From assembly GCA_964016885.1 (NCBI GenBank), contig OZ024756.1, positions 7,874,001 to 7,938,000 on the forward strand: 64,000 nucleotides of DNA, read 5' to 3'. Both the position numbers and the translations under genes were made by a program. The notes under the pieces are model-generated. The model ran no database searches, was not told the origin of the DNA, and saw nothing but the letters and a program-made list of their open reading frames with translations. Position 1 is the stretch's first letter. Each line of letters begins with the position of its first letter. The stretch is from Eledone cirrhosa. Its lineage: Eukaryota. Below are positions 1 through 57,914 of this stretch, in pieces.

Positions 1-3000
1 ATGTAGGGAGTGTGATATATATAGTAAATCTATATATTAGATGATATAGTGAGTGTGATATATCTAATCTATATTCTTACTATATCTCACTCTCTACATT
101 ATCTAATCTATAGTCTTACTATATATATCACACTCTATACATTATCTAATTTATAGTCTTACTATGTCACACTCCCTACATTATCTAATCTATAGATGAC
201 ATAATGTAGAGTGTGAGATATAGTAAGACTATAAATTAAATAATGTAGAGAGAGTGGTATAGTAAGACTATAGATTAGATAATGTAGAGAAAGTGATATA
301 GTAAGACTATAGATTAGATAATGTACAGAGTGAGATATTTATCGTAAGACGATAAATTTGATTATGTAGAGAGTGTGATATAGTAAGACTATAGATTAGA
401 TAATGTAGAGAGTGTGATATAGTAACACTATAGATTTGATAAACTAGGGAGTGTGATATAGTAAGACTATAGATTAGATAATGTAGAGAGTGTGATATAG
501 TAAGACTATAAATTATATAATGGGGAGAGTGTTATATAGTAAGACTATAGATTAGATAATGTAGAGAGTGTTATATAGTAAGATTATAGATTAGATAATG
601 TAGAGCGTGTGATATAGTACGACTATAGATTAGATAATGTAGAGAGTGTGATATAGTAAGACTATAGATTAGATAATGTAGAGTGTGTGATATAGTAAGA
701 CTATAGATTAGATAATGTAGAGAGTGTAATATAGTAAAACTATAGATTATATAATTGGCAGAGTGTGATATAGTAAGACTATAGATTACATAATGTAGAG
801 AGTGTAATATAGTAAAACTATAGATTATATAATTGGAAGAGTGTGATATAGTAAGACTATAGATTACATAATGTAGAGAGTGTGATATAGTAAGACTATG
901 GATTAGATAATGTAGGGAGAAAGATATAGTAAGACTATAGATTAGATAATGTAGAGTGTGTGATATAGTAAGACTATAGAATAGATAATATAGAGAGTGT
1001 GATATAGTAAGCCTATGGATTAGATAATGTAGAGAGTGTGATCTAGTAAGGCTATAGATTAGATAATGTAGAGAGTGTGATATATATAGTAAGACTATAG
1101 ATTAGATAATGTAGGGAGTGTGATATATATAGTAAAACTATAGATTAGATAATGTGGAGATTGTGATATAGTAAGACTATAGATTAGATAATCTAGAGAG
1201 TGTGATATATAAAGTAAGACTATAGATTAGATAATGTAGGGAGTGTGATATATATAGTAAATCTATATATTATATTATATAGAGAGCGTGATATACCTAA
1301 TCTATATTCTTAATATATCTCACTCTCTACATTATCTAATCTATTGTCTTATTATATATATCACACTCTCTACATTATCTAATCTATGAATTAGATAATG
1401 TAGAGAGTGTGATATAGTAAGACTATAGATTAGATAATGTAGAGATTGAGATATGTATCGTAAGACTATAGATTAGATTATGTAGAGAGTGTGATATAGT
1501 AAGACTATAGATTAGATAATGTAGAGAGTGTGATATAGTAAGACTATAGATTTGATAATGTAGAGAGTGTGATATGTATCATAAGACTATAGATTAGATA
1601 ATGTAGACAGTGTGATATAGTAAGACTATAGATTAGATAGTGTAGAGAGTGGGATATAGTAAGACAATAGATTAGATAATGTAGAGCGTGTGATATACTA
1701 AGACTATTGATTATATAATGTAGAGAGTGAGATATAGTATGACTATAGATTAGATAATATATAGTGTGTGATATAGTAATACTATAGAGTAGATCATATA
1801 GAGAGTGTGATGTATTAAGACTATATATTAGATAATTTAGAGAGTGTGATATAGTAAGACTATAGATTAGATAATGTAGAGAGTGTGATATAGTAAGACT
1901 ATAGATTATATAATGTAAAGAGTGAGATATAGTAAGACTATTGATTATATATTGCAGAGAGAGAGATATAGTAAGATTATAGATTAGATAATGTAGTGAA
2001 TGTGATTTATATAGTAACACTATAGATTTGATAAGATAGAGAGTTTGATATAGTAAGACTATAGATTTAATAATGTAGATAGTGTGATATAGTAAGACTA
2101 TAGATTAGATAATGTAGAGAGTGTGATATATAAAATAAGACTATAGATTAGCTAATGTAGAGAGTGTGATATAGTAAGACTATAGAATAGATAACGAAAA
2201 GAGTGTGGTATATATAGTATGTCTATAAATTAGATAACGTATAGTGTGTGATATAATAAGATTATAGATTAGATAATGTAGAGAGTGTGATATAGTAAGA
2301 CTATAGATTAGATAATGTAGGGAGAAAGATATAGTAAGACTATAGATTAGATAGTTTAGAGAGTGTGATATAGTAAGACAATAGATTAGATAATGTAGGG
2401 CGTGTGATATAGTAAGACTATTTACTAGATAATGTATAGAGTGTGATATGTATCCTAAGCCTATAGATTAGATAATGTAGAGAGTGTGATCTAGTAAGAG
2501 TATAGATTATCTAATGTAGAGAGTGTGATATATCGAATCTATATTCTTACTATATCTCATTCTCTACATTATCTAATCTATAGTCTTACTATATATATCT
2601 CACTCTCTACATTATCTAATCTATAGTCTTACTATATATATGTCACTCTCTACATTATCTATTCTATAGTCTTACTATATCAAAATCTCTACATTGTCTA
2701 ATCTAACGTCTTACTATATATATCACACTCACTACATTATCTAATCTATAGTCTTACTATATATATCTCACTCACTACATTATTTAATCTAGAGTCTTAC
2801 TATATCACAGTCTCTACATTATCTAATATATGGTCTTATTATATCTCACTCTCTATAATATCTAATCTATAGTCTTGCCATATATATCTCCCTCACTACA
2901 TTATCTAATCTATAGTCTTACTATATATATCTCACTCTCTACATTAACTAATCTATAGTCTTACTATATCACACACTCTACATTATCTAATCTATAGTCT

Positions 3001-3299
3001 TACTATATCACACTCTCTACATTATCTAATCTATAGTCTTACTATATCACACTCTCTACATTATCTAACATATAGTCTTACTATATATATCTCACTCTCT
3101 ACATTAACTAATCTATAGTCTTACTATATCACACACTCTACATTATCTAATCTATAGTCTTACTATATCACACTCTCTACATTATCTTATCTATAGTCTT
3201 ACTATATCACACACTCTACATTATCTAATATATAGTCTTACTATATATATCACACTCTCTACATTACCTAATCTATAGTCTTACTCTATCACACTCTCT

Positions 3300-6840: not shown

Positions 6841-9800
6841 CTCTACTTTATCTAATCTATAGTCTTACTACATATATCACACTCACTGCATTATCTAATT
6901 TATAGTCTTACTATATATATCACACTCTCTACATTATCTAATCTATAGTTTTACTATATCTCACTCTCTACATTATCTAATTTATAGTCTTACTATATAT
7001 ACCACACTCTCTTTGTTATGTATTCTATAGTCTTACTATATCACACTATCTACATTATCTAATCTATAGTCTTACTATATATATCACACTCTCTACATTA
7101 TCTAATCAATTGTCTTACTATATCACACTCTCTACATTATCTACTCTATAGTCTTACTATATCACACTCTCTACATTATCTAATCTATTGTCTTACTATA
7201 ACATTCCCGCTATATCATCTAATCTATAGTCTTACTATATCACACTCTCTGCATTATCTAATCTATAGTCTTACTATATCAAACTCTCTACATTATCTAA
7301 TTTATAGTCTTACTATATATACCACACTCTCTTCATTATCTATTCTATAGTCTTACCATATCTCACTCTCTAGATTATCTAATCTATAGTCTTACTATAT
7401 CACACTCTCTACATTATCTAAACCATTGTCTTACGATATATATCTCACCCTCTACGTTATATAATCTATCGTCTTACTATGTCTCACACTCTACAATATC
7501 TAATCTATAGTCATACTATATATATCTCACTTTCTACATTATCCGATCTATAGTCTTACTATATATCACACTCTCTACATTATCTATTCTATAGATGAGA
7601 TAATGTAGAGAGTGAGATATAGTAAGACTATAGATTAGATAATATAGAGAGTGAGATAAAGTAAGACAATATATTAGATAATGTAGAGAGAGTGATATAG
7701 TAAGACTATAGATTAGATAATGTAGAGAGTGTGATATATATAGTAACACTATAGATTAGAAATTGTAGAGTGTTTGATATAGTAATACTATAGATTAGAT
7801 TATGTAGAGAGTGTGATTTAGTAAGATTATAGATTAGATAATGTAGAGAGTGTGATATATTAAAACTATAGATTAGATAATCTATAGTCTTACTATATCA
7901 CACTCTCTATATTATCTAATTTATAGTCTCACTATATCTCACTCTCTATATTATCCAATCTATTGTCTTACTATATATATCACACTCTCGATATTGTCTG
8001 ATCTATAGAGTTAGTATATCACTCTCTCTACATTATCTAATCTTTAGTCTTACTATATATATCACCCTCTCTATATTATCTACTATATAGTCTTACTATA
8101 ACACATTCTCTACATTAACTAATCTATAGTCTTACTATATATATCACACTCTCTACATTATCTAATCTATAGTTTTACTATATATATCACACTCTCTACA
8201 TTGTCTAATCCATAGTCTTACTATATATATCACACTCTCTACATTATCTAATTTATAGTCTTACTATGCCACACTCCCTACATTATCTAATCTATAGATG
8301 AGATAATATAGAGAGTGAGATAGAGTAAGAAATTTGATTAGATAATACAGAGACTGTGATATAGTAAGACCATAGATTAGATAGTGTAGAGAGTGTGATA
8401 TAGTAAGACTATAGATTAGATAATCTAGGGAGTATGATATATATAGTAAATCTATAGATTAGATAATGTAGAAAGTGTGATATTGTAAGACTATAGATTA
8501 TCTAATGGAGAGAGTGACATATATATAGTAAGACTATAGTTTAGATTATGTAGAGAGTGTCATATTTATAGTAAAACTATAGATTAGATAATGTAGAGAG
8601 TATGATAAATATAGTAAGACTATGGATTAGATAATGTAGGGAGTGTGATATATATATTATAAAACTATAGATTAGATAATGTGGAGAGTGTGATATGGTA
8701 AGACTATATATTAGATAATGTTGAGAGTCTGATATATTAAGACTATAGAGAGTGTTATATATATATAGTAAGACTATAGATTAGATAATGTAGAGAGTGA
8801 AATATATATAGTAAGACTATAGATTAGATAATGCAGAGAGAGTGTGATATAGTAAGACTATATATTAGATAATGTAGAAAGTGTGATATATATAGTAAAT
8901 CTATATATTAGATGATATAGAGATTGTAATATATCGAATCTATATTCTTACTATATCTCACTCTCTACATTATCTAGTATATAGTCTTACTATATATATC
9001 ACACACTCTACATTATCTAATCTATAGTCTTACTATATATATCACACTCTCTACATTATCTAATTTATAGTCTTACTATATATATCACACTCTCTACATT
9101 ATCTAATATATAGTCTCTAATATATCAAACGCTCTACATTATCTAATCCATATTCTTACTATATCTCACTCTCTACATTATCTAATATATAGTTTTACTA
9201 TATCACACACTCTACATTATCTAATCTATAGTCTTATTATAGCACACACACTACATTATCAAAACTATAGTCTTACTATATATTTCTCACTATCTACATT
9301 ATCTAATCTATAGTCTTACTATATCCCAGTCTCTACATTATCAAATCTATAGTCTTACTATATATATCACTCTCTCTACATTATCTAATCTACTGTCTAA
9401 CTATATCATTCTCCCTATATTATCTAATCTATAGTCTTACTATATCACACTCTTTGCATTATCTAATCTATAATCTTACTATAACTCACTCTCTAGATTA
9501 TCTAATCTATAGTCTTACTATATCACACTCTCTACATTATCTAAACTATTGTGTTACGATAGATATCTCACTCTCTACATTATATAATCTCTGGTCTTAC
9601 TATGTCTCACTCTCTACAATATCTAATCTATTGTCTTACTATATATATCTCACTCTGTACATTATCTGATTTATAGCCTTACTATATATATCACACTCTC
9701 TACATTATCTAATCTATAGTCTTATTATATATATCACACTCTCTACATTATCTAATTTATAGTCTTACTATGTCACACTCCCTACATGATCTAATCTATA

Positions 9801-11442
9801 GATAAGATAATGTAGAGAGTGAGATAGAGTAAGACTATATATTAGATAATGTAGAGAGAGTGATAGAGTAAGACTATAGATTAGATAATGTAGAGATAGT
9901 GATATAGTAAGAGTATAGATTCGAGAATGTAGAGAGTGTGATATATATAGTAAGACTATAGATTGAATAATGTAGAGAGTGTGATATAGTAAGACTATAG
10001 ATTATTTAATGGTGAGTGTGTGATATAGTAAGACTATAGATTAGATAATGTAGAGAGTGTGATATAGTAAGACTATAGATTAGATAATGTAGAGATAGTG
10101 ATATAGTAAGACTGTAGATTAGATAATGTAGAGAGTGTGATATAGTAAGACTATAGATTAGATAATGTAGAGATAGTGATATAGTAAGACTATAGATTAG
10201 ATAATGTAGAGTGTGTGATATAGTAAGACTATAGATTAGATAATGTAGAGAGTGTGATATAGTAACACTATAGATTAGATAATGTAGAGAGTGTGATATA
10301 GTAAGACTATAGATTAGAGAATGTAGAGAGTGTGATATATAGTGTATGACTATAGATTAGATAATGTAGAGAGTGTGATATATATAGTAAGACTATATAT
10401 TAGATAATGTAGAAAGTGTGATACATATAGTAAGACTTTAGATTAGATAATGTAGAGGGTGAGATATGGTAAGACTATAGATTAGATAATGTAGAGAGTG
10501 AGATATATATAGTAAGACTATATATTAGATAATGTAGAGAGTGTGATATATATAATAAAACTATAGATTAGATAAGGTGTAGAGTGTGATATAGTAAGAC
10601 TATAGATTAGATAATGTAGAGAGTGTGATATATATAGTAAGAATATATGTTAGATAATGCAGAGAGTATTTTATATATAGTAAGACTATAGATTATATAA
10701 TGTAGAGAGTGTTATATATATATATAGTAAGACTATAGATTAGATAATGTAGGGAGTGTGATATATATAGTAAATCTATATATTAGATGATATAGAGAGT
10801 GTGATATATCGAATCTATATTCTTACTATATATCACTCTCTACATTATCTAATCTATAGTCTTATTATATATATCACACTCTCTACATTATCTAATTTAT
10901 AGTCTTACTATGTCACACTCCCTACATGATCTAATCTATAGATAAGATAATGTAGAGAGGGAGATAGAGTAAGACTATATATTAGATAATGTAGAGAGTG
11001 ATAGATTAAGACTATAGATTAGATAATGTAGAGATAGTGATATAGTAAGAGTATAGATTCGAGAATGTAGAGAGTGTGATATATATTGTAAGACTATAGA
11101 TTAGATAATGTAGAGAGTGTGACATATATAGTAAGACTATAGATTGGATAATGTAGAGAGTGTGATATAGTAAGACTATAGATTATATAATGGGGAGTGT
11201 GTGATATAGTAAGACTATAGATTAGATAATGTAGAGAGTGTGATATAGTAAGACTATAGATTAGATAATGTAGAGAGTGTGATATAGTAAAACTATAGAT
11301 TAGATAATGTAGAGAGTGTGATATAGTAAGACTATAGATTAGATAATGTAGAGATAGTGATATAGTAAGACTATAGATTAGATAATGTAGAGAGTGTGAT
11401 ATAGTAAGACTATAGATTAGATAATGTAGAGTGTGTGATATA

Positions 11443-11669
11443 GTAAGACTATATATTAGATAGTTGTTTCTACTTTAAGCACAACGCCAGCAATTCACCA
11501 GTACGTTACTGGTACTTTATTTTATCGACCCCGTAAGGATGAACGGCAAAGATAACCGTGGCAAGATTTGAAATTAAACGGTAAAGTGACGTAACTATGC
11601 TAGAAAGCATGGCATCCAAACTTCTACGGATACTGCCAATCAACCATGTAAGACTATATCTATTAGATA
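11443..11669. repeat. Apparent ~20-bp target-site duplication around the SINE insert
   Basis: Left GTAAGACTATATATTAGATA (11443-11462) and right GTAAGACTATATCTATTAGATA (11648-11669). The monomer register restarts 20 bp back after the insert, and both sides lack the consensus G of ATAGATT. Confidence 0.7.
11463..11647 (-). mobile_element. tRNA-derived SINE-like insert, copy 1 (185 bp, variant a, B box mutated)
   Basis: Non-satellite sequence. The minus strand reads ATGGTTGATTGGCAGTATCCGTAG (A-box-like) ... TTTCAAATC (damaged B box) ... TTTGCCGTTCATCCTTACGGGGTCGATAAAATAAAGTACCAG. It is flanked by duplicated satellite sequence. The resemblance to Octopus SINEs is from memory. Confidence 0.8.
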
Positions 11670-14600
11670 ATGTAGAGAGTGTGATATAGTAAGACTATAG
11701 GTTAGAGAATGTAAAGAGTGTGATATATAGTGTATGACTATAGATAGATAATGTAGAGAGTGTGATATATATAGTAAGACTATAGATTAGATAATGTAGA
11801 AAGTGTGATACATATAGTAAGACTTTAGTTTAGACAATGTAGAGAGTGTGATATGGTAAGACTATAGATTAGATAATGTAGAGAGTGAGATATATATAGT
11901 AAGACTATATATTAGATAATGTAGAGCGTGTGGTATAGTAAGACTATAGATTAGATAAAGTAGAGAGTGAGATATATATAGTAAGACTATATATTATATA
12001 ATGTAGAGAGTGTGATATAGTAAGACTATAGATTATATAATGTAGAGTATGTGATATATATAGTAAAACTATAGATTTTCTAATGTAGAGAGTGAGATAT
12101 ATATAATAAGACTATAGATTAGAATATGTAGAGTGTGTGATATATATAGTAAGACTATAGATTAGATAAGGTGTAGAGTGTGATATATATAGTAAGACTA
12201 TAGATTAGATAATGTAGAGAGTGTGATATATATATTAAAATTATAGATTAGATAGTGTGGAGAGTGTGATATAGAATGACTATATATTAGATAATATTGA
12301 GAGTCTGATATATTAAGACTATAGATTAGATAATGTAGAGAGTGTGATATATCTTGAAAGAATATAGGTTAGATAATGCAGAGAGTATTTTATATATAGT
12401 AAGACTATAGATTAGATAATGTAGAGAGTGTGATATAAATAGTATGAGTATAGATTAGAGAATGTAGAGAGTGTGATATATAGGGTAAGACTATAGATTA
12501 GATAATGTAGAGAGCGTAATATATATAGTAAGACTATATATTAGATAATGTTGAGAGTCTGATATATTAAGACTATAGAGAGTGTTATATATATATAGTA
12601 AGACTATAGATTAGATAATGTAGAGAGTGAAATATATATAGTAAGACTATAGATTAGATAATGCAGAGAGAGTGTGATATAGTAAGACTATATATTAGAT
12701 AATGTAGAAAGTGTGATATATATAGTAAATCTATATATTAGATGATATAGAGATTGTAATATATCGAATCTATATTCTTACTATATCTCACTCTCTACAT
12801 TATCTAGTATATAGTCTTACTATATATATCACACACTCTACATTATCTAATCTATAGTCTTACTATATATATCACACTCTCTACATTATCTAATTTATAG
12901 TCTTACTATATATATCACACTCTCTACATTATCTAATATATAGTCTCTAATATATCAAACGCTCTACATTATCTAATCCATATTCTTACTATATCTCACT
13001 CTCTACATTATCTAATATATAGTTTTACTATATCACACACTCTACATTATCTAATCTATAGTCTTATTATAGCACACACACTACATTATCAAAACTATAG
13101 TCTTACTATATATTTCTCACTATCTACATTATCTAATCTATAGTCTTACTATATCCCAGTCTCTACATTATCAAATCTATAGTCTTACTATATATATCAC
13201 TCTCTCTACATTATCTAATCTACTGTCTAACTATATCATTCTCCCTATATTATCTAATCTATAGTCTTACTATATCACACTCTTTGCATTATCTAATCTA
13301 TAATCTTACTATAACTCACTCTCTAGATTATCTAATCTATAGTCTTACTATATCACACTCTCTACATTATCTAAACTATTGTGTTACGATAGATATCTCA
13401 CTCTCTACATTATATAATCTCTGGTCTTACTATGTCTCACTCTCTACAATATCTAATCTATTGTCTTACTATATATATCTCACTCTGTACATTATCTGAT
13501 TTATAGCCTTACTATATATATCACACTCTCTACATTATCTAATCTATAGTCTTATTATATATATCACACTCTCTACATTATCTAATTTATAGTCTTACTA
13601 TGTCACACTCCCTACATGATCTAATCTATAGATAAGATAATGTAGAGAGTGAGATAGAGTAAGACTATATATTAGATAATGTAGAGAGAGTGATAGAGTA
13701 AGACTATAGATTAGATAATGTAGAGATAGTGATATAGTAAGAGTATAGATTCGAGAATGTAGAGAGTGTGATATATATAGTAAGACTATAGATTGAATAA
13801 TGTAGAGAGTGTGATATAGTAAGACTATAGATTATTTAATGGTGAGTGTGTGATATAGTAAGACTATAGATTAGATAATGTAGAGAGTGTGATATAGTAA
13901 GACTATAGATTAGATAATGTAGAGATAGTGATATAGTAAGACTGTAGATTAGATAATGTAGAGAGTGTGATATAGTAAGACTATAGATTAGATAATGTAG
14001 AGATAGTGATATAGTAAGACTATAGATTAGATAATGTAGAGTGTGTGATATAGTAAGACTATAGATTAGATAATGTAGAGAGTGTGATATAGTAACACTA
14101 TAGATTAGATAATGTAGAGAGTGTGATATAGTAAGACTATAGATTAGAGAATGTAGAGAGTGTGATATATAGTGTATGACTATAGATTAGATAATGTAGA
14201 GAGTGTGATATATATAGTAAGACTATATATTAGATAATGTAGAAAGTGTGATACATATAGTAAGACTTTAGATTAGATAATGTAGAGGGTGAGATATGGT
14301 AAGACTATAGATTAGATAATGTAGAGAGTGAGATATATATAGTAAGACTATATATTAGATAATGTAGAGAGTGTGATATATATAATAAAACTATAGATTA
14401 GATAAGGTGTAGAGTGTGATATAGTAAGACTATAGATTAGATAATGTAGAGAGTGTGATATATATAGTAAGAATATATGTTAGATAATGCAGAGAGTATT
14501 TTATATATAGTAAGACTATAGATTATATAATGTAGAGAGTGTTATATATATATATAGTAAGACTATAGATTAGATAATGTAGGGAGTGTGATATATATAG

Positions 14601-17274: not shown

Positions 17275-20200
17275 TTATCTAATTTATAGTCTTACTATGC
17301 CACACTCCCTACATTATCTAATCTATAGATGAGATAATATAGAGAGTGAGATAGAGTAAAAAATTAGATTAGATTATGTTGAGAGTGTGATATAGTAGGA
17401 CTATAGATTAGATAATACAGAGTCTGTGATATAGTAAGACTATAGATTAGATAGTGTAGAGAGTGTGATATAGTAAGACTATAGATTGGATAATCTAGGG
17501 AGTATGATATATATAGTAAATCTATAGATTAGATAATGTAGAAAGTGTGATATTGTAAGACTATAGATTATCTAATGGAGAGAGTGACATATATATAGTA
17601 AGACTATAGATTAGATTATGTAGAGAGTGTGATATATATAATAAAACTATAGATTAGATAATGTAGAGAGTATGATATATATAGTAAGACTATAGATTAG
17701 ATAATGTAGGGAGTGTGATATATATTATAAAACTATAGATTAGATAATGTGGAGAGTGTGATATGGTAAGACTATATATTAGATAATGTTGAGAGTCTGA
17801 TATATTAAGACTACAGAGAGTGTTATATATATAGTAAGACTATAGATTAGATAATGTAGAGAGCGAAATATATATAGTAAGACTATAGATTAGATAATGC
17901 AGAGAGAGTGTGATATAGTAAGACTATATATTAGATAATGTAGAAAGTGTGATATATATAGTAAATCTATATATTAGATGATATAGAGATTGTCATATAT
18001 CGAATCTATATTCTTACTATATCTCACTCTCTACATTATCTAATATATAGTCTTACTATATATATCACACTCTCTACATTATCTAATTTATAGTCTTACT
18101 ATATATATCACACTCTCTACATTGTCTAATTTATAGTCTTACTATATATATCACACTCTCTACATTATCTAATATATAGTCTCTAATATATCAAACTCTC
18201 TACATTATCTAATCCATATTCTTACTATATCTCACTCTCTACATTATCTAATATATAGTTTTACTATATCACACACTCTACATTATCTAATCTATAGTCT
18301 TACTATAGCACACACACTACATTATCAAAACTATAGTCTTACTATATATTTCTCACTATCTACATTATCTAATCTATGGTCTTACTATATCCCAGTCTCT
18401 ACATTATCAAATCTATAGTCTTACTATATATATCACACTCTCTACATTATCTAATCTACTGTCTAACTATATCATTCTCCCTATATTATCTAATCTATAG
18501 TCTTACTATATCACACTCTCTGCATTATCTAATCTATAATCTTACTATATCTCACTCTCTAGATTATCTAATCTATAGTCTTACTATATCACACTCTCTA
18601 CATTATCTAAACTATTGTGTTATGACAGATATCCCAGTCTCTACATTATCAAATCTATAGTCTTACTATATATATCACATTCTCTACATTATCTAATCTA
18701 CTGTCTAACTATATCATTCTCCCTATATTATCTAATCTTATGTCTTACTGTATCACACTCTCTGCATTATCTAATCTATAATCTTACTATATCACACTCT
18801 CTACATTATCTAAACTATTGTGTTACGATAGATATCTCACTCTCTACATTATATAATCTATGGTCTTTCTATGTCTCACTCTCTACAATATCTAATCTAT
18901 TGTCTTACTATATATATCTCACTCTGTACATTATCTGATCTATAGCCTTACTATATATATCACACTCTCTACATTATCTAATCTATAGTCTTATTATATA
19001 TATCACACTCTCTACATTATCTAATTTATAGTCTTACTATGTCACACTCCCTACATGATCTAATCTATAGATAAGATAATGTAGAGAGTGAGATAGAGTA
19101 AGACTATATATTAGATAATGTAGAGACAGTGATAGAGTAAGACTATAGATTAGATAATGTAGAGATAGTGATATAGTAAGAGTATAGATTCGAGAATGTA
19201 GAGAGTGTGATATGTATTATAAGACTATAGATTAGATAATGTAGGGAGTATGATATATATAGTAAATCTATAGATTAGATAATGTAGAAAGTGTGATATT
19301 GTAAGACTATAGATTATCTAATGGAGAGAGTGACATATATATAGTAAGACTATAGATTAGACTATGTAGAGAGTGTGATATATATAGTAAAACTATAGAT
19401 TAATAATGTAGAGAGTATGATATATATAGTAAGACTATAGATTAGATAATGTAGGGAGTGTGATATATATTATAAAACTATAGATTAGATAATGTGGAGA
19501 GTGTGATATGGTAAGACTATATATTAGATAATGTTGAGAGTTTGATATATTAAGACTATAGAGAGTGTTATATATATAGTAAGACTATAGATTAGATAAT
19601 GTAGGGAGCGAAATATATATAGTAAGACTATAGATTTGATAATGCAGAGAGAGTGTGATATAGTAAGACTATATATTAGATAATGTAGAAAGTGTGATAT
19701 ATATAGTAAATCTATATATTAGATGATATAGAGATTGTAATATATCGAATCTATATTCTTACTATATCTCACTCTCTACATTATCTAATATATAGTCTTA
19801 CTATACATATCACACACTCTACATTATCTAATCTATAGTCTTACTATATATATCACACTCTCTACATTATCTAATTTATAGTCTTACTATATATATCACA
19901 CTCTCTACATTATCTAATATATAGTCTCTAATATATCAAACTCTCTACATTATCTAATCCATATTCTTACTATATCTCACTCTCTACATTATCTAATATA
20001 TAGTTTTACTATATCACACACTCTACATTATCTAATCTATAGTCTTACTATAGCACACACACTACATTATCAAAACTATAGTCTTACTATATATTTCTCA
20101 CTATCTACATTATCTAATCTATAGTTTACTATATCCCAGTCTCTACTTTATCAAATCTATAGTCTTACTATATATATCACACTCTCTACATTATCTAATC

Positions 20201-23200
20201 TACTGTCTAACTATATCATTCTCCCTATATTATCTAATCTATAGTCTTACTATATCACACTCTCTGCATTATCTAATCTATAATCTTACTATATCTCACT
20301 CTCTAGATTATCTAATTTATAGTCTTACTATGCCACACTCCCTACATTATCTAATCTATAGATGAGATAATATAGAGAGTGAGATAGAGTAAAAAATTAG
20401 ATTAGATTATGTTGAGAGTGTGATATAGTAGGACTATAGATTAGATAATACAGAGACTGTGATATAGTAAGACTATAGATTAGATAGTGTAGAGAGTGTG
20501 ATATAGTAAGACTATAGATTGGATAATCTAGGGAGTATGATATATATAGTAAATCTATAGATTAGATAATGTAGAAAGTGTGATATTGTAAGACTATAGA
20601 TTATCTAATGGAGAGAGTGACATATATATAGTAAGACTATAGATTAGATTATGTAGAGAGTGTGATATATATAATAAAACTATAGATTAGATAATGTAGA
20701 GAGTATGATATATATAGTAAGACTATAGATTAGATAATGTAGGGAGTGTGATATATATTATAAAACTATAGATTAGATAATGTGGAGAGTGTGATATGGT
20801 AAGACTATATATTAGATAATGTTGAGAGTCTGATATATTAAGACTACAGAGAGTGTTATATATATAGTAAGACTATAGATTAGATAATGTAGAGAGCGAA
20901 ATATATATAGTAAGACTATAGATTAGATAATGCAGAGAGAGTGTGATATAGTAAGACTATATATTAGATAATGTAGAAAGTGTGATATATATAGTAAATC
21001 TATATATTAGATGATATAGAGATTGTCATATATCGAATCTATATTCTTACTATATCTCACTCTCTACATTATCTAATATATAGTCTTACTATATATATCA
21101 CACTCTCTACATTATCTAATTTATAGTCTTACTATATATATCACACTCTCTACATTGTCTAATTTATAGTCTTACTATATATATCACACTCTCTACATTA
21201 TCTAATATATAGTCTCTAATATATCAAACTCTCTACATTATCTAATCCATATTCTTACTATATCTCACTCTCTACATTATCTAATATATAGTTTTACTAT
21301 ATCACACACTCTACATTATCTAATCTATAGTCTTACTATAGCACACACACTACATTATCAAAACTATAGTCTTACTATATATTTCTCACTATCTACATTA
21401 TCTAATCTATGGTCTTACTATATCCCAGTCTCTACATTATCAAATCTATAGTCTTACTATATATATCACACTCTCTACATTATCTAATCTACTGTCTAAC
21501 TATATCATTCTCCCTATATTATCTAATCTATAGTCTTACTATATCACACTCTCTGCATTATCTAATCTATAATCTTACTATATCTCACTCTCTAGATTAT
21601 CTAATCTATAGTCTTACTATATCACACTCTCTACATTATCTAAACTATTGTGTTATGATAGATATCCCAGTCTCTACATTATCAAATCTATAGTCTTACT
21701 ATATATATCACACTCTCTACATTATCTAATCTACTGTCTAACTATATCATTCTCCCTATATTATCTAATCTTATGTCTTACTGTATCACACTCTCTGCAT
21801 TATCTAATCTATAATCTTACTATATCACACTCTCTACATTATCTAAACTATTGTGTTACGATAGATATCTCACTCTCTACATTATATAATCTATGGTCTT
21901 TCTATGTCTCACTCTCTACAATATCTAATCTATTGTCTTACTATATATATCTCACTCTGTACATTATCTGATCTATAGCCTTACTATATATATCACACTC
22001 TCTACATTATCTAATCTATAGTCTTATTATATATATCACACTCTCTACATTATCTAATTTATAGTCTTACTATGTCACACTCCCTACATGATCTAATCTA
22101 TAGATAAGATAATGTAGAGAGTGAGATAGAGTAAGACTATATATTAGATAATGTAGAGACAGTGATAGAGTAAGACTATAGATTAGATAATGTAGAGATA
22201 GTGATATAGTAAGAGTATAGATTCGAGAATGTAGAGAGTGTGATATGTATTATAAGACTATAGATTAGATAATGTAGGGAGTATGATATATATAGTAAAT
22301 CTATAGATTAGATAATGTAGAAAGTGTGATATTGTAAGACTATAGATTATCTAATGGAGAGAGTGACATATATATAGTAAGACTATAGATTAGACTATGT
22401 AGAGAGTGTGATATATATAGTAAAACTATAGATTAGATAATGTAGAGAGTATGATATATATAGTAAGACTATAGATTAGATAATGTAGGGAGTGTGATAT
22501 ATATTATAAAACTATAGATTAGATAATGTGGAGAGTGTGATATGGTAAGACTATATATTAGATAATGTTGAGAGTTTGATATATTAAGACTATAGAGAGT
22601 GTTATATATATAGTAAGACTATAGATTAGATAATGTAGGGAGCGAAATATATATAGTAAGACTATAGATTTGATAATGCAGAGAGAGTGTGATATAGTAA
22701 GACTATATATTAGATAATGTAGAAAGTGTGATATATATAGTAAATCTATATATTAGATGATATAGAGATTGTAATATATCGAATCTATATTCTTACTATA
22801 TCTCACTCTCTACATTATCTAATATATAGTCTTACTATACATATCACACACTCTACATTATCTAATCTATAGTCTTACTATATATATCACACTCTCTACA
22901 TTATCTAATTTATAGTCTTACTATATATATCACACTCTCTACATTATCTAATATATAGTCTCTAATATATCAAACTCTCTACATTATCTAATCCATATTC
23001 TTACTATATCTCACTCTCTACATTATCTAATATATAGTTTTACTATATCACACACTCTACATTATCTAATCTATAGTCTTACTATAGCACACACACTACA
23101 TTATCAAAACTATAGTCTTACTATATATTTCTCACTATCTACATTATCTAATCTATAGTTTACTATATCCCAGTCTCTACTTTATCAAATCTATAGTCTT

Positions 23201-23350
23201 ACTATATATATCACACTCTCTACATTATCTAATCTACTGTCTAACTATATCATTCTCCCTATATTATCTAATCTATAGTCTTACTATATCACACTCTCTG
23301 CATTATCTAATCTATAATCTTACTATATCTCACTCTCTAGATTATCTAAT
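17275..23350. repeat. Tandem duplication, 2 x ~3,033 bp
   Basis: Matching sequence at 17281/20314. ORFs 18376/21409 and 18615/21648 are offset by 3,033. A few substitutions and a 1-bp indel distinguish the copies. Confidence 0.9.
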
Positions 23351-24047
23351 CTATAGACTTACTATATCACACTCTCTACATTATCTAAACTATTGTGTTA
23401 CGATAGATATCTCACTCTCTACATTATATAATCTATGGTCTTACTATGTCTCACTCTCTACAATATCTAATCTATTGTCTTACTATATATATCTCACTCT
23501 GTACATTATTTGATCTATAGCCTTACTATATATATCACACTCTCTACATTATCTAATTTATAGTCTTACTATGTCACACTCCCTACATGATCTATTCTAT
23601 AGATAAGATAATGTAGAGAGGGAGATAGAGTAAGACTATATATTAGATAATGTAGAGAGAGTGATAGAGTAAGACTATAGATTAGATAATGTAGAGATAG
23701 TGATATAGTAAGAGTATAGATTCGAGAATGTAGAGAGTGTGATATATATTGTAAGACTATAGATTAGATAATGTAGAGAGTGTGACATATATAGTAAGAC
23801 TATAGATTGGATAATGTAGAGAGTGTGATATAGTAAGACTATAGATTATATAATGGGGAGTGTGTGATATAGTAAGACTATAGATTAGATAATGTAGAGA
23901 GTGTGATATAGTAAGACTATAGATTAGATAATGTAGAGATAGTGATATAGTAAGACTATAGATTAGATAATGTAGAGAGTGTGATATAGTAAGACTATAG
24001 ATTAGATAATGTAGAGTGTGTGATATAGTAAGATTATATATTAGATA

Positions 24048-24233
24048 GTTGTTTCTACTTTAAGCACAACGCCAGCAATTCACCAGTAACGTTACTGGTA
24101 CTTTATTTTATCGACCCCGTAAGGATGAACGGCAAAGATAACCTCGGCAAGATTTGAACTTAAACGGTAAAGTGACGTAACTATGCTAGAAAGCATGGCA
24201 TCCAAACTTCTACGGATACTGCCAATCAACCAT
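24048..24233 (-). mobile_element. tRNA-derived SINE-like insert, copy 3 (186 bp, variant b, B box intact)
   Basis: The minus strand has A-box-like TGGCAGTATCCGTAG (24210-24224) and B box GTTCAAATC (24151-24159). It differs from copies 1/2 by 1 indel and 3 substitutions. Confidence 0.82.
24151..24224 (-). promoter_or_regulatory. Putative internal RNA polymerase III type-2 promoter (A box + B box) of SINE copy 3; the same motifs occur in copy 4 at +6,875
   Basis: The B box GTTCAAATC matches GTTCRANNC. The A box is degenerate relative to TRGCNNARYGG. The boxes are about 50 bp apart. Confidence 0.5.
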
Positions 24234-27200
24234 GTAAGACTATATATATTAGATAATGTAGAGAGTGTGATATAGTAAGACTATAGGTTAGAGAATGTAA
24301 AGAGTGTGATATATAGTGTATGACTATAGATTAGATAATGTAGAGAGTGTGATATATATAGTAAGACTATAGATTAGATAATGTAGAAAGTGTGATACAT
24401 ATAGTAGGACTTTAGATTAGACAATGTAGAGAGTGTGATATGGTAAGACTATAGATTAGATAATGTAGAGAGTGTGATATATATAGTAAGACTATATATT
24501 AGATAATGTAGAGCATGTGGTATAGTAAGACTATAGATTAGATAAAGTAGAGAGTGAGATATATATAGTAAGACTATATATTATATAATGTAGAGAGTGT
24601 GATATCGTAATACTATAGATTATAAAATGTAGAGAGTGTGATACAGTAAGACTATAGATTAGATAATTTAGGGAGAATGATATAGTAAGGCTATAGATTA
24701 GATAATGTAGAGAGTGTGATATAGTAAGACTATAGATTATATAATGTAGAGTATGTGATATATATAGTAAAACTATAGATTTTCTAATGTGGAGAGTGAG
24801 ATATATATAATAAAACTATAGATTAGAATATGTAGAGTGTGTGATATATATAGTAAGACTATAGATTAGAATATGTAGAGAGTGTGATATATATAGTAAG
24901 ACTATAGATTAGATAATGTAGAGAGTGTGATATATATATTAAAATTATAGATTAGATAGTGTGGAGAGTGTGATATAGAATGACTATATATTAGATAATA
25001 TTGAGAGTCTGATATATTAAGACTATAGATTAGATAATGTAGAGAGTGAGATATATATAGTAAGACTATATATTATATAATGTAGAGAGTGTGATATAGT
25101 AATACTATAGATTACAAAATGTAGAGAGTGTGATATAGTAAGACTATAGATTAGATAATGTAGAGAGAGTAATATAGTAAGACTATAGATTAGATAATGT
25201 AGGGAGAATGATATTGTAAGACTATAGATTAGATAATGTAGAGAGTGTGATATAGTAAGACTATAGATTATATAATATAGAGAGTCTGATATATATATTA
25301 AAATTATAGATTAGATAATGTGGAGAGTGTGATATAGAATGACTATATATTAGATAATATTGAGAGTCTGATATATTAAGACTATAGATTAGATAAGGTA
25401 GAGAGTGTGATATATCTAGAAAGAATATAGGTTAGATAATGCAGAGAGTATTTTATATATAGTAAGACTATAGATTAGATAATGTAGAGAGTGTGATATA
25501 TATAATAAGACTATAGATTATATAATGTAGAGAGCGTGATATAGTAAGACTATAGATTAGATAATGTAGGGAGAATGATATAGTAAGACTATAGATTAGA
25601 TAATGTAGAGAGTGTGATATATCTAGAAAGAATATAGGTTAGATAATGCAGAGAGTATTTTATATATAGTAAGACTATAGATTAGATAATGTAGAGAGTG
25701 TGATATATATAGTAAGGCTATAGATTATCTAATGTAGAGAGTGAGATATATATAATAAGACTATAGATTAGATTATGTAGAGAGTGTGATATATATAGTA
25801 AGACTATAGATTAGAATATGTAGAGAGTGTGATATACATATAGTAAGAATATAGATTAGATAATGTAGAGAGTGTGATATATATAGTAATACTATAGATT
25901 AGATAATGTAGAGAGTGTGATATATATATAGTAAGACTATAGATTATATAATCTAGGGAGTCTGATATAAATAGTAAATCTATATATTAGATGATATAGA
26001 GAGTGTGATATATCTAATCTATATTCATACTATATTTCACTCTAAACAATATCTAATCTATAGGCTCACTATATATATCACACACTCTACATTATATAAT
26101 CTATAGTCTTACTATATCGCACTCTGTACATTATATAATGCATAGTATAGATATACATTAGACAATGTAGAGAGTGTGATATAGTAACACTATATATTAG
26201 ATAATGTAGGGAGAATGATATAGAAAGACAGATGAGACAATGTAGAGAGTGTGATATAAATAGTAAAACTATAGATTAGAATAATGTAGAGAGTGTGATA
26301 TAGTAAGACTATAGATTAGATAATGTGGAGATGGTGATATAGTAACACTATAGATTAGACAATGTAGAGAGTGTGATATAGTACGACTATAGATTATATA
26401 ATGTAGAGAGTGAGATATGTATTGTAAGACTATGATGTAAAGAGTGTGATAAATATATTAAGACTATAGATTAGATAATGTGGAGAGTGTGATATAGTAA
26501 GACTATAGATTAGATAATGAAGAGAGTGTGATATGTATAGTGAGACTATAGATTAGATTATGTAGAGAGTGTGATATATATAGTAAAACTATAGATTAGA
26601 TAATGTGGAGAGTGTGATATAGTAAGACTATAGATTAGATGATGTAAAGAGTGTGATAAATATAGTAAGACTATAGATTAGATAATGTTGAGTGTGTGAT
26701 ATATATAGGAAGACTATAGATTAGATAATGTAGAGTGTGTGATATATATAGGAAGATTATAGATTAGATAATGTAGAGAGTGTGATATAGTAAGACTATA
26801 GATTAGATAATGCAGAGAGTTTGATATATATAGTAAGACTATAAATTAGATAATATAGATAGTGTGATATAGTAAGACAATATATTTGATAATGTATAGA
26901 ATGTGATATAATAAGACTATAGATTAGATAATGTAGAGAGTGTGATATATATAATAAGACTATAGATTAGATGATGTAAAGAGTGTGATATATATAGTAA
27001 GACTATAGATTAAATAATGTAGAGAGTGTGATATATAGAGTATGACTATAGATTAGAAAATGGAGAGAGTGAGATATAGTAAGATTACAGTATCTAATAT
27101 ATAGTCTTTCTATATATATCTCACTCTCTACATTATCTAATCTATAGTCTTACTATATCACACTCTCTACATTATATAATATATAGTCTTTCTATATATA

Positions 27201-30200
27201 TCACACTCTCTACATTATCTAATCTATAGTCTTTCTATATCGCCCTCTCTACATTATATAATATATAGGCTTACTATATATATCTCACTCTCTACATTAT
27301 CTAATCTATAGTCTTACTATATCTCACTCTCTACATTATCTAATCTATAGTCTTACTATACCACACGCTCTACATTATATAATATATAGTCTTACTATAT
27401 ATATCACACTCTCTACATTATCTACTCTCTAGTATTACCATATCACACTCTCTACATTTTCTAATCCATAGACTTACTATATCACACTCTCTACATTATC
27501 TAATCTATAGTCTTACTATATCACACTCTCTACATTATATAATATATAGTCTTACTATATATATCACACTCTCTACATTATCTAATCTATAGTCTTACTA
27601 TATCACACTCTCTACATTATATAATCTATAGTCTTTCTATATCGCCCTCTCTACATTATGTAATATATAGTCTTACTATATATATCTCACTCTCTACATT
27701 ATCTAATCTATAGTCTTACTATATCTCACTCTCTACATTATCTAATCTATAGTCTTACTATACCACACACTCTACGTTATATAATATATATAGTCTTACT
27801 ATTTATATCATACTCTCTACATTATCTAATCTTTAGACTTACTATATCACACTCTCTACATTATCTCATCTATAGTCTTACTATATCACAAGATCTACAT
27901 TATCTAATATATAATCTTACTATATCACATGATCTACATTATCTAATCTATAGTCTTACTATATCACACTCTCTACATTATATAATCTATAGTCTTTCTA
28001 TATCGCCCTCTCTACATTATGTAATATATAGTCTTACTATATATATCTCTCTCTCTACATTATCTAATCTATAGTCTTACTATATCTCACTCTCTACATT
28101 TTCTAATCTACAGTCTTACTATATCTCACTCTCTACATTATCTAATTTATAGTCTTACTATATATATCACACTCTCTACATTATCTAATCTTTAGACTTA
28201 CTATATCACACACTCTACATTATCTAATCTATAGTCTTACTATATATATCACACTCTGTACATTATCTAATCTATAGTCTTACTATATCTATCACACTCT
28301 CTACATTATCTAATATATAGTCTTACTATATCACACACTCTGCATTATCTAATCTATAGTCTTAGTATATATATCCCACTCTCTGCATTATCTAATCTAT
28401 AGTCTTACTATATATATATCACACACTCTACATTATCTAATCTATAGTCTTACTATATATATATCTCACTCTCTACAGTAACTAATCTATAATCTTACTA
28501 TATCACATTCTCTACATTATCTAATATATAGTCTCACTATATCACACTCTCTACAATATATAATTTATAGTCTTACTTAATATATCTCACTCTCTACATT
28601 ATCTAATCTATAGTCTTACTATATATATCACACTCTCTACATTATCTAATCTACTGTCTAACTATATCATTCTCCCTATATTATCTAATCTTATGTCTTA
28701 CTGTATCACACTCTCTGCATTATCTAATCTATAATCTTACTATATCACACTCTCTACATTATCTAAACTATTGTGTTACGATAGATATCTCACTCTCTAC
28801 ATTTTATAATCTATGGTCTTTCTATGTCTCACTCTCTACAATATCTAATCTATTGTCTTACTATATATATCTCACTCTGTACATTATCTGATCTATAGCC
28901 TTATTATATATATCACACTCTCTACATTATCTAATTTATAGTCTTACTATGTCACACTCCCTACATGATCTAATCTATAGATAAGATAATGTAGAGAGTG
29001 AGATAGAGTAAGACTATATATTAGATAATGTAGAGACAGTGATAGAGTAAGACTATAGATTAGATAATGTAGAGATAGTGATATAGTAAGAGTATAGATT
29101 CGAGAATGTAGAGAGTGTGATATGTATTATAAGACTATAGATTAGATAATGTAGGGAGTATGATATATATAGTAAATCTATAGATTAGATAATGTAGAAA
29201 GTGTGATATTGTAAGACTATAGATTATCTAATGGAGAGAGTGACATATATATAGTAAGACTATAGATTAGACTATGTAGAGAGTGTGATATATATAGTAA
29301 AACTATAGATTAGATAATGTAGAGAGTATGATATATATAGTAAGACTATAGATTAGATAATATAGGGAGTGTGATATATATTATAAAACTATAGATTAGA
29401 TAATGTGGAGAGTGTGATATGGTAAGACTATATATTAGATAATGTTGAGAGTTTGATATATTAAGACTATAGAGAGTGTTATATATATAGTAAGACTATA
29501 GATTAGATAATGTAGGGAGCGAAATATATATAGTAAGACTATAGATTTGATAATGCAGAGAGAGTGTGATATAGTAAGACTATATATTAGATAATGTAGA
29601 AAGTGTGATATATATAGTAAATCTATATATTAGATGATATAGAGATTGTAATATATCGAATCTATATTCTTACTATATCTCACTCTCTACATTATCTAAT
29701 ATATAGTCTTACTATACATATCACACACTCTACATTATCTAATCTATAGTCTTACTATATATATCACACTCTCTACATTATCTAATTTATAGTCTTACTA
29801 TATATATCACACTCTCTACATTATCTAATATATAGTCTCTAATATATCAAACTCTCTACATTATCTAATCCATATTCTTACTATATCTCACTCTCTACAT
29901 TATCTAATATATAATTTTACTATATCACACACTCTACATTATCTAATCTATAGTCTTACTATAGCACACACACTACATTATCAAAACTATAGTCTTACTA
30001 TATATTTCTCACTATCTACATTATCTAATCTATAGTTTACTATATCCCAGTCTCTACTTTATCAAATCTATAGTCTTACTATATATATCACACTCTCTAC
30101 ATTATCTAATCTACTGTCTAACTATATCATTCTCCCTATATTATCTAATCTATAGTCTTACTATATCACACTCTCTGCATTATCTAATCTATAATCTTAC

Positions 30201-30922
30201 TATATCTCACTCTCTAGATTATCTAATCTATAGACTTACTATATCACACTCTCTACATTATCTAAACTATTGTGTTACGATAGATATCTCACTCTCTACA
30301 TTATATAATCTATGGTCTTACTATGTCTCACTCTCTACAATATCTAATCTATTGTCTTACTATATATATCTCACTCTGTACATTATTTGATCTATAGCCT
30401 TACTATATATATGACACTCTACATTATCTAATTTATAGTCTTACTATGTCACACTCCCTACATGATCTATTCTATAGATAAGATAATGTAGAGAGGGAGA
30501 TAGAGTAAGACTATATATTAGATAATGTAAAGAGAGTGATAGAGTAAGACTATAGATTAGATAATGTAGAGATAGTGATATAGTAAGAGTATAGATTCGA
30601 GAATGTAGAGAGTGTGATATATATTGTAAGACTATAGATTAGATAATGTAGAGAGTGTGACATATATAGTAAGACTATAGATTGGATAATGTAGAGAGTG
30701 TGATATAGTAAGACTATAGATTATATAATGGGGAGTGTGTGATATAGTAAGACTATAGATTAGATAATGTAGAGAGTGTGATATAGTAAGACTATAGATT
30801 AGATAATGTAGAGATAGTGATATAGTAAGACTATAGATTAGATAATGTAGAGAGTGTGATATAGTAAGACTATAGATTAGATAATGTAGAGTGTGTGATA
30901 TAGTAAGATTATATATTAGATA

Positions 30923-31108
30923 GTTGTTTCTACTTTAAGCACAACGCCAGCAATTCACCAGTAACGTTACTGGTACTTTATTTTATCGACCCCGTAAGGA
31001 TGAACGGCAAAGATAACCTCGGCAAGATTTGAACTTAAACGGTAAAGTGACGTAACTATGCTAGAAAGCATGGCATCCAAACTTCTACGGATACTGCCAA
31101 TCAACCAT
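30923..31108 (-). mobile_element. tRNA-derived SINE-like insert, copy 4 (variant b)
   Basis: Appears identical to copy 3 with the same flanks, offset by 6,875 bp. Confidence 0.82.
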
Positions 31109-34100
31109 GTAAGACTATATATATTAGATAATGTAGAGAGTGTGATATAGTAAGACTATAGGTTAGAGAATGTAAAGAGTGTGATATATAGTGTATGACT
31201 ATAGATTAGATAATGTAGAGAGTGTGATATATATAGTAAGACTATAGATTAGATAATGTAGAAAGTGTGATACATATAGTAGGACTTTAGATTAGACAAT
31301 GTAGAGAGTGTGATATGGTAAGACTATAGATTAGATAATGTAGAGAGTGTGATATATATAGTAAGACTATATATTAGATAATGTAGAGCATGTGGTATAG
31401 TAAGACTATAGATTAGATAAAGTAGAGAGTGAGATATATATAGTAAGACTATATATTATATAATGTAGAGAGTGTGATATAGTAATACTATAGATTATAA
31501 AATGTAGAGAGTGTGATATAGTAAGACTATAGATTAGATAATTTAGGGAGAATGATATAGTAAGGCTATAGATTAGATAATGTAGAGAGTGTGATATAGT
31601 AAGACTATAGATTATATAATGTAGAGTATGTGATATATATAGTAAAACTATAGATTTTCTAATGTAGAGAGTGAGATATATATAATAAGACTATAGATTA
31701 GAATATGTAGAGTGTGTGATATATATAGTAAGACTATAGATTAGAATATGTAGAGAGTGTGATATATATAGTAAGACTATAGATTAGATAATGTAGAGAG
31801 TGTGATATATATATTAAAATTATAGATTAGATAGTGTGGAGAGTGTGATATAGAATGACTATATATTAGATAATATTGAGTGTCTGATATATTAAGACTA
31901 TAGATTAGATAATGTAGAGAGTGAGATATATATAGTAAGACTATATATTATATAATGTAGAGAGTGTGATATAGTAATACTATAGATTACAAAATGTAGA
32001 GAGTGTGATATAGTAAGACTATAGATTAGATAATGTAGAGAGAGTAATATAGTAAGACTATAGATTAGATAATGTAGGGAGAATGATATTGTAAGACTAT
32101 AGATTAGATAATGTAGAGTGTGTGATATAGTAAGACTATAGATTATATAATATAGAGAGTCTGATATATATATTAAAATTATAGATTAGATAATGTGGAG
32201 AGTGTGATATAGAATGACTATATATTAGATAATATTGAGAGTCTGATATATTAAGACTATAGATTAGATAATGTAGAGAGTGTGATATATCTAGAAAGAA
32301 TATAGGTTAGATAATGCAGAGAGTATTTTATATATAGTAAGACTATAGATTAGATAATGTAGAGAGTGTGATATATATAATAAGACTATAGATTATATAA
32401 TGTAGAGAGTGTGATATAGTAAGACTATAGATTAGATAATGTAGGGAGAATGATATAGTAAGACTATAGATTAGATAATGTAGAGAGTGTGATATATCTA
32501 GAAAGAATATAGGTTAGATAATGCAGAGAGTATTTTATATATAGTAAGACTATAGATTAGATAATGTAGAGAGTGTGATATATATAGTAAGGCTATAGAT
32601 TATCTAATGTAGAGAGTGAGATATATATAATAAGACTATAGATTAGATTATGTAGAGAGTGTGATATATATAGTAAGACTATAGATTAGAATATGTAGAG
32701 AGTGTGATATACATATAGTAAGAATATAGATTAGATAATGTAGAGAGTGTGATATATATAGTAATACTATAGATTAGATAATGTAGAGAGTGTGATATAT
32801 ATATAGTAAGACTATAGATTATATAATCTAGGGAGTCTGATATAAATAGTAAATCTATATATTAGATGATATAGAGAGTGTGATATATCTAATCTATATT
32901 CTTACTATATTTCACTCTAAACAATATCTAATCTATAGGCTCACTATATATATCACACACTCTACATTATATAATCTATAGTCTTACTATATCGCACTCT
33001 GTACATTATATAATGCATAGTATAGATATACATTAGACAATGTAGAGAGTGTGATATAGTAACACTATATATTAGATAATGTAGGGAGAATGATATAGAA
33101 AGACAGATGAGACAATGTAGAGAGTGTGATATAAATAGTAAAACTATAGATTAGAATAATGTAGAGAGTGTGATATAGTAAGACTATAGATTAGAAAATG
33201 TGGAGATGGTGATATAGTAACACTATAGATTAGACAATGTAGAGAGTGTGATATAGTACGACTATAGATTATATAATGTAGAGAGTGAGATATGTATTGT
33301 AAGACTATGATGTAAAGAGTGTGATAAATATATTAAGACTATAGATTAGATAATGTGGAGAGTGTGATATAGTAAGACTATAGATTAGATAATGAAGAGA
33401 GTGTGATATGTATAGTGAGACTATAGATTAGATTATGTAGAGAGTGTGATATATATAGTAAAACTATAGATTAGATAATGTGGAGAGTGTGATATAGTAA
33501 GACTATAGATTAGATGATGTAAAGAGTGTGATAAATATAGTAAGACTATAGATTAGATAATGTTGAGTGTGTGATATATATAGGAAGACTATAGATTAGA
33601 TAATGTAGAGTGTGTGATATATATAGGAAGATTATAGATTAGATAATGTAGAGAGTGTGATATAGTAAGACTATAGATTAGATAATGCAGAGAGTTTGAT
33701 ATATATAGTAAGACTATAAATTAGATAATATAGATAGTGTGATATAGTAAGACAATATATTTGATAATGTATAGAGTGTGATATAATAAGACTATAGATT
33801 AGATAATGTAGAGAGTGTGATATATATAATAAAACTATAGATTAGATGATGTAAAGAGTGTGATATATATAGTAAGACTATAGATTAGATAATGTAGAGA
33901 GTGTGATATATAGAGTATGACTATAGATTAGAAAATGTAGAGAGTGAGATATAGTAAGATTACAGTATCTAATATATAGTCTTTCTATATATATCTCACT
34001 CTCTACATTATCTAATCTATAGTCTTACTATATCACACTCTCTACATTATATAATATATAGTCTTTCTATATATATCACACTCTCTACATTATCTAATCT

Positions 34101-57910: not shown

Positions 57911-57914
57911 TATT

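Follow-up and report, generated by a model that had tools for sequence, protein, structure and literature searches.

Dense inverted organization of a 39/43-bp satellite in Eledone cirrhosa and its probable origin from a few old inversions

The DNA analyzed here (the window) is a stretch of 64,000 nucleotides from Eledone cirrhosa (assembly GCA_964016885.1, contig OZ024756.1, positions 7,874,001 to 7,938,000), the whole of which is one AT-rich satellite (27% GC). In the left part of the window this satellite changes strand 39 times, while in the right part it runs in one direction only. The array represents a known satellite architecture at an unusual density and is not a new kind of element. 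Its pattern is probably (with a probability of about 0.72) the product of a few, roughly three, old inversions that were guided by microhomology at dyads of the monomer, and that were then copied head-to-tail by ordinary direct duplication. No function is needed to explain it.

Orientation domains and junction types

The satellite monomer is 39 bp long, with a common 43-bp variant. Its commonest exact form, TATCTAATCTATAGTCTTACTATATCACACTCTCTACAT, makes up 21 of the 153 in-phase 39-mers of the one-way part, and the monomers of the mixed and the one-way part are 93% and 95% identical to this form, respectively. The window was segmented by two independent procedures, a k-mer Viterbi and a wrap-around monomer alignment with inserts masked. 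Each of them gave 39 orientation switches between positions 61 and 33,960, which separate 40 subarrays at a density of 1.15 switches per kb, and each gave none in 33,961-64,000. From 34,001 on, each 1-kb segment has a GC skew between -0.69 and -0.79. The G-rich blocks range from 289 to 2,414 bp, apart from one of 60 bp that the window edge truncates, and have a median of 1,011 bp; the C-rich blocks range from 94 to 1,890 bp, with a median of 613 bp. An earlier note on this DNA had described about 39 strand switches in 34 kb with an alternation every 0.1-2.4 kb; its count, its placement of the switches and its range of block lengths (94-2,414 bp) were all correct.

Grouping of the junctions by clustering on overall identity was unstable and produced 4-16 groups depending on the threshold. 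Register fitting, in which all pairs of monomer positions were fitted to each junction, was used instead and sorted the 39 switches into five types: A (16 copies), D-type (17), B (2), C (2) and E (2) (Table 1). A or D-type junctions therefore represent 33 of the 39 switches. From left to right the order is A D A D' A D* A D A D B D A D A D A D A D B D A D A D A D A D A E C D A D A E C, and A junctions follow one another at 1.2-3.6 kb. The inverted blocks are mostly bounded by A...D, with four exceptions, namely two B...D blocks (7878 and 16909) and two A...E blocks (26011 and 32886). All joins are satellite-to-satellite, and there is no foreign DNA at the switches.

All A junctions (16/16) and 16 of the 17 D-type junctions were fitted in register 23, the four B and E junctions in register 7, and both C junctions in register 9. 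Register 23 ties for the longest exact self-complementary run among the 39 registers (CTATAG, 6 bases), while self-complementary matches are most numerous in register 7 (18/39, with 8/10 in the best window). Four of the five types thus occupy two of the three most self-complementary registers (A with D in 23, B with E in 7), from which we infer that A/D and B/E are pairs of break points. Type A junctions are off-centre, with an 18-nt loop between the mirror arms, and type B has perfect arms of 11 nt separated by a 2-nt spacer. Junction D' (window 1360-1415) displays perfect arms of 27 nt around a 6-nt loop, opened by a 2-base swap in the CTATAG axis. Junction D* has its right flank in common with the D junction at 5600 and lacks a portion of the left monomer.

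Table 1. Coordinates of the features of the window
Feature	Position	Strand	Remarks
Mixed-orientation domain of 39/43-bp satellite	1..33960	.	39 strand switches; runs off left window edge
One-way array, same monomer	33961..64000	+	C-rich on +; own 3,436-3,801-bp direct higher-order repeats; internal control
Type A (G to C), 16 copies	61, 1294, 2531, 5026, 6767, 8932, 10807, 12762, 14637, 17998, 19743, 21031, 22777, 26011, 29654, 32886	+	register 23
Type D (C to G), 15 copies	190, 5600, 7589, 8292, 9796, 10936, 13626, 14766, 17323, 19065, 20356, 22098, 23597, 28975, 30472	+	centred on monomer CTATAG palindrome
D'	1388	+	register of D, without D's diagnostic variants
D*	3581	+	deletion derivative of 5600-type D
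Type B (G to C), 2 copies	7878, 16909	+	register 7 (ATTA/TAAT dyad)
Type E (C to G), 2 copies, 26135..33017	centred near 26135 and 33010	+	register 7; putative reciprocal partner of B
Type C (G to C), 2 copies	27085, 33960	+	register 9; second copy is the border with the one-way array
Recent direct duplication	8698..16368	+	period 3,830 bp; 3,841 bp at 100% identity; 4 junctions per unit
Recent direct duplication	17274..23350	+	period 3,033-3,034 bp; >99.8% identical; 4 junctions per unit
Recent direct duplication	22023..35255	+	period ~6,875 bp; >99.6% in matched runs; 6 junctions per unit
SINE-like insert copy 1, 185 bp	11463..11647	-	~20-bp target duplication of monomer positions 1-20
SINE-like insert copy 2	15293..15477	-	identical to copy 1
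SINE-like insert copy 3	24048..24233	-	4 differences from copies 1 and 2
SINE-like insert copy 4	30923..31108	-	identical to copy 3

Multiplication of the junctions and proposed history

The long near-exact matches are all direct, with periods of 3,830, 3,033, 6,875 and 1,745 bp that hold 4, 4, 6 and 2 junctions, respectively. The 1,745-bp unit, which extends from A to A, is older and is contained in the duplication at 17274..23350, while that at 22023..35255 reaches 1.3 kb into the one-way array. Inverted matches do not exceed 117 bp, a length seen between near-consensus monomers, and a BLAST self-search returned no minus-strand match at 96% identity or more with a 64-base seed. When the 70-nt junction cores were compared with up to 8 mismatches, the forward and reverse matches numbered 15 and 0 for A, 2 and 0 for E, 2 and 0 for C, 14 and 1 for D, and 2 and 2 for B. 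The sole reverse match of D is the near-symmetric D', and B is itself symmetric but has flanks of one polarity. All 38 orientable junction copies have one polarity.

In 1-33,965, haplotype runs of at least three monomers were found 175 times in direct orientation (1.75 after shuffling) and never in inverted orientation (0 after shuffling), and the three inverted runs of two monomers correspond to chance (2.1 after shuffling). The mean number of shared variants is 0.154 in mirrored monomer pairs (n = 285), 0.121 in random G x C pairs and 0.08-0.11 in off-register pairs, whereas copies of one junction type have up to 2.2-3.6 variants in common in their first monomers on three of four sides. The arms are not mirror copies, as fold-back inverted duplication would make them. 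Leaving aside the recombinant at 2531, the type A cores differ at 0-12 of 94 bases, which indicates several generations of copying. Similar duplications are present in the junction-free one-way part (3,520 bp over 7 kb at 99.8%, and 3,436-3,801 bp), showing that amplification proceeds without any need for junctions.

These results bear on another explanation, namely a self-amplifying hairpin module, in which fold-back or cruciform cleavage at the junctions would be followed by a repair that duplicates a unit of G and C arms, through origin-dependent inverted-repeat amplification (ODIRA) or a breakage-fusion-like process. The dyad-centred position of B, D and E (three of the five types), the long perfect arms of D' and the location of two recent duplication borders 2-3 monomers from a D junction are in agreement with such a module. 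It is nevertheless very unlikely, because mirrored arms, inverted haplotype runs of at least three monomers and highly similar minus-strand self-matches are missing, and because duplications of equal size also arose where there are no junctions. In a copying model, donor switches fell within one monomer of a junction in 9 of 70 cases (or 7 of 53), with 13.3% expected (p 0.6), so that exchange points are not enriched there. At 36 of the 39 junctions, moreover, perfect pairing at the axis extends over 3-8 nt, comparable to the 4-9 nt of 40 one-way control sites; it is longer in B (11 nt) and D' (27 nt).

The earlier note had proposed that the amplified unit is a hairpin-forming inverted repeat. 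This stands as far as the duplicated units (1,745, 3,033, 3,830 and 6,875 bp, with 2, 4, 4 and 6 junctions) hold G and C arms together, and as far as the single strands fold strongly in silico. The predicted fold of junction-centred 200-nt single strands has a mean of -51 kcal/mol (range -30 to -68), versus -6 for 40 one-way controls. No fixed module could be recognized, as the arms are unequal, unmirrored and mosaic: the median ratio of long to short arm is 2.0 and adjacent lengths correlate at -0.43. The idea that hairpins drive the amplification found no support, since the copies are all direct, exchange points are not enriched at junctions and duplications of like size are found in the one-way part.

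The same note had stressed that long inverted repeats are normally unstable. Arm identity averages about 82% and ranges from 71 to 87%, and the longest stretch of perfect match has a median of 29 bases. For inverted Alu pairs in yeast, PMC10164571 gives rearrangement rates about 58-fold lower at 86% arm identity and 1,087-fold lower at 75%, and we infer by analogy that such rates would carry over to an animal satellite. Together with the interrupted centres, the divergence of the arms would then remove most of the paradox, which is weaker than had been stated. Selection for broken palindrome centres was also considered and found to be unsupported; monomer divergence by itself predicts central perfect arms of this shortness.

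Taken together, these features suggest the following history, with direct duplication of a few old inversions as its basis. The first inversion would have turned an internal segment by strand exchange at the CTATAG register, giving the D and A ends. Junction A may be the reciprocal product in which 8 axis-adjacent bases were replaced by normal C-strand sequence, so that the centre became the 18-nt loop. The reciprocal pair B and E, the two products expected of a crossover, would have come from another inversion, this time through the ATTA/TAAT dyad, and a third junction, C, would connect the mixed domain with the long one-way array. Some three founding events are enough for this, with D' as a possible fourth. 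Direct duplication and deletion, whose pattern is seen in the window and whose mechanism is deduced from it, would then have multiplied the junctions in successive rounds, swapped their flanks and altered the arm lengths, most likely by unequal exchange between blocks of the same direction. The B...D and A...E blocks look like recombinants, in direct orientation, of the A-D block and the B-E block. The array presumably persisted owing to arms that are only about 82% alike and centres that are interrupted, with cruciform extrusion being rare; single-stranded DNA could fold into hairpins, of which the sequence bears no trace.

Several points weigh against this history. That A pairs with D and B with E was deduced post hoc from the registers, and with only five types the rough p is 0.02-0.03 per argument. 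The register of A presumes a 39-bp monomer on the G side, and a 43-bp monomer would shift it; the model fit of E has 5 mismatches in 32; and D' could be a sixth, independent event. The variant sharing of mirrored pairs is slightly above the off-register values, which is too small for fold-back copying yet non-zero. The single strands of the junctions, which are predicted to fold strongly, could snap back, and diverged inverted repeats are described in PMC10164571 as still destabilizing in long single-stranded DNA. Finally, outside support concerns junction A only and is partial.

Some observations were also made on the layering of the two domains. In the one-way array (47339-64000) a 3,520-bp repeat occurs about three times at 99.8-99.9%, followed by variants of 3,436-3,801 bp. 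Monomers carry 1.9 variants each in the one-way array, versus 2.6-2.8 in the mixed part, and this greater homogeneity suggests that the one-way array is a younger layer. The correlation of the variant spectrum with that of the G blocks decreases from 0.46 in the C blocks of the mixed part to 0.29 in the near and 0.16 in the far one-way array, a gradient over 1-64000 patterned as in layered expansion. In the window region 1-7600 the paralogous matches are shorter and older than in 8.3-34 kb, and the mixed domain therefore probably extends beyond the left window edge, where it would also be of greater age.

Evidence for the reality of the strand switches

A test stretch of 221 bp (10,760-10,980), which comprises one A and one D junction, was compared with four public sequencing runs out of seven candidates. 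Of these seven, three public runs of one sample contain 29-34% of 95 words sampled from 10,700-11,750, run X1 has a share of 0.04 and provides no evidence, and three were included by their species label. In run X2, which may come from the source sample itself, an 83-nt contig (depth 58) matches 10,760-10,822 without any difference across junction A, with 47 and 16 letters on its two sides, which falls short of the 31-letter bridging rule. No public contig spans the whole test stretch, and among the listed pieces there is no bridge over junction D. For the G side of junction A, depth in two public runs was 58-191 or lower, as compared to more than 100,000 on ordinary monomers (depth being no copy number), which hints that junction A is rare in the genome and a local feature.

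An assembly or library artefact, by fold-back chimeras from amplified DNA or by mis-joined reads, could be suspected from the incomplete coverage of the 221-bp stretch and from the one 3,841-bp duplicate that is 100% identical; two restriction-site-associated DNA sequencing (RAD-seq) runs with 0 reads provide no test. The exact 3,830-bp repeat could be an assembly over-expansion. However, the X2 contig is exact across junction A, and stronger evidence comes from the array itself: chimeras would yield identical mirror arms, which are absent. The copies of the junctions also differ from each other in a nested, tree-like manner, with 10 distinct cores among the 16 of type A and 8 among the 15 of type D. 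When the second copy of the three recent large duplications was removed, 25 of the 39 switches were left. An artefact is thus highly improbable as the source of the switches.

Known systems, possible function and the SINE-like insert

In a centromere atlas preprint, satellites are described as tending to lie on one strand. The closest counterparts of the present array are the macro-dyads of Tribolium beetles, reported for TmSat1 and TmSat2 of T. madens (PMC13081366) and for TfSat01 and TfSat03 of T. freemani (PMC12581902). Those of T. madens were confirmed on raw reads and a function was suggested by the authors (PMC13081366, PMC12581902), and according to PMC13081366 satellite macro-dyads have been documented in Tribolium only. 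As in Tribolium, inverted subarrays of a single satellite here form an uninterrupted array (40 subarrays, 39 switches), and a few near-identical types of inversion site recur without foreign DNA (six in TfSat01, two in TmSat1 and five here). Arm length is variable in both, and TmSat1 has a degenerate monomer at its inversion site.

The differences are mainly of scale and of distribution. Tribolium arrays mostly consist of two subarrays (71.8% in TfSat01), with a median array of 9.3-16.3 kb, whereas the blocks described here measure 0.1-2.4 kb, and the present array is several-fold denser in switches. Tribolium macro-dyads tend to symmetry, while the lengths of adjacent blocks are negatively correlated here. 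Their inversion sites are found again on many chromosomes, within (peri)centromeric regions of megabase size, as compared to the one stretch known here. The 39/43-bp monomer also lacks a second interleaved satellite, and its junctions, unlike those described for Tribolium, can be traced to dyads of the monomer and to direct duplication. In human, more than 200 inversion breakpoints were reported in the HSat3B5 (chr9) and beta-satellite arrays (bioRxiv 10.1101/2021.07.12.452052). These sequences are unrelated to the present one and their breakpoints are spread over large pericentromeric arrays rather than 39 in 34 kb, but the many strand switches in a finished assembly indicate that frequent switching is a known state of satellites. 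A third group, the 1,061-bp satellite of T. brevicornis, MAD2 of T. madens and TAUD2 of T. audax (cited in PMC12581902), has monomers made of inverted subunits. Amplification in tandem of such a pair corresponds to the central idea of the earlier note, although those units are fixed and homogenized, while the unit here is not fixed and its arms are arrays of a short monomer.

A selected function of the inverted organization, with junction loops or hairpins organizing centromeric or heterochromatic chromatin as proposed for the Tribolium macro-dyads, is quite unlikely. Two junction types account for most switches and their cores are recognizable in every copy, the junction strands are predicted to fold far more strongly than the one-way controls, and conserved inversion sites are reported for T. 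madens and T. freemani. Nevertheless, core similarity is what shared descent gives. Monomers adjacent to the junctions are more diverged from the consensus (9.4% and 8.6%) than those further out (5.6-8.5%), the arm lengths have no trend to equality, and the low depth at junction A hints at a local rather than a genome-wide feature. A wider proposal, that of a selected junction-dense domain of about 2-kb dyad units, ten times denser than the Tribolium macro-dyads and probably outside beetles, with dyad-seeded inversions, hairpins in vivo and a distinct chromatin compartment (e.g. a centromere border), is unlikely.

Conserved inversion sites in satellites have elsewhere been taken as a sign of function, and this array offers a neutral explanation for them. 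Its short, variant-rich monomer makes the history readable as a few dyad inversions followed by simple direct duplication in which opposed arms exchanged nothing, and this history can serve as an explicit neutral model for testing claims of function. The 34 kb of mixed and 30 kb of one-way DNA, both made of the same monomer, constitute a natural control for studies of hairpins, breaks and chromatin proteins.

The earlier note had also found the architecture reminiscent of Foldback-type transposons. In Foldback-type elements such as Drosophila FB, Tetris, Galileo and Rehavkus (PMC4079207), opposed arms of short tandem repeats could fold back, as could the arms seen here, which have no defined outer ends, and Tetris and Rehavkus have been reported as satellite seeds. 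A tandem cluster of such DNA transposons, with arms made of this repeat, is however extremely improbable. No junction has a flanking domain, a middle domain or a target-site duplication. The modular terminal inverted repeat, the target duplication of 8-10 bp and the transposase described for these elements are lacking, and the array is undispersed within the window. The G-to-C and C-to-G joins are both seamless satellite and their copies are those of tandem duplication with mosaic flanks. As the earlier note had stated, no transposase open reading frame (ORF) is present, since all 30 ORFs of at least 40 amino acids are read-through of the satellite or of an insert, although non-autonomous copies would also lack one. 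Its statement that there is no unique spacer proved wrong, as a short interspersed nuclear element (SINE)-like insert is present in four copies.

This insert of 185/186 bp is the only long non-satellite DNA in the window. It lies within the arms, inside G blocks, at 450-530 bp from the nearest junction and not at the inversion centres. Monomer positions 1-20 flank it on both sides as a target-site duplication with a shared variant at position 9. Four copies with one target duplication point to a single insertion that was subsequently copied, in the same copy-after-insertion manner as the junctions. By eye, and against the box consensus, its minus strand has a B-box-like motif, GTTCAAATC, and a weak A-box-like motif; ARAGORN predicted no gene and Rfam gave no match in the insert. 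The central 30-42 bases of the insert were aligned in 28 of 107 alignments to 105 metagenome loci, which had been chosen by a 17-base seed. Judged from these sequence features, the insert is best read as a putative SINE with a widely conserved core. This core may be a Nin/Deu domain or that of an abundant octopus SINE type, a guess that the papers checked did not confirm.

The satellite monomer itself had no match in the metagenome contigs, and the literature searches, made by words that cannot match a sequence, gave no account of this satellite. The open frame of the C strand gives repeat peptides of up to 158 amino acids (1544-2020, minus strand) with no sign of genes, and it stays open because 39 is a multiple of 3.

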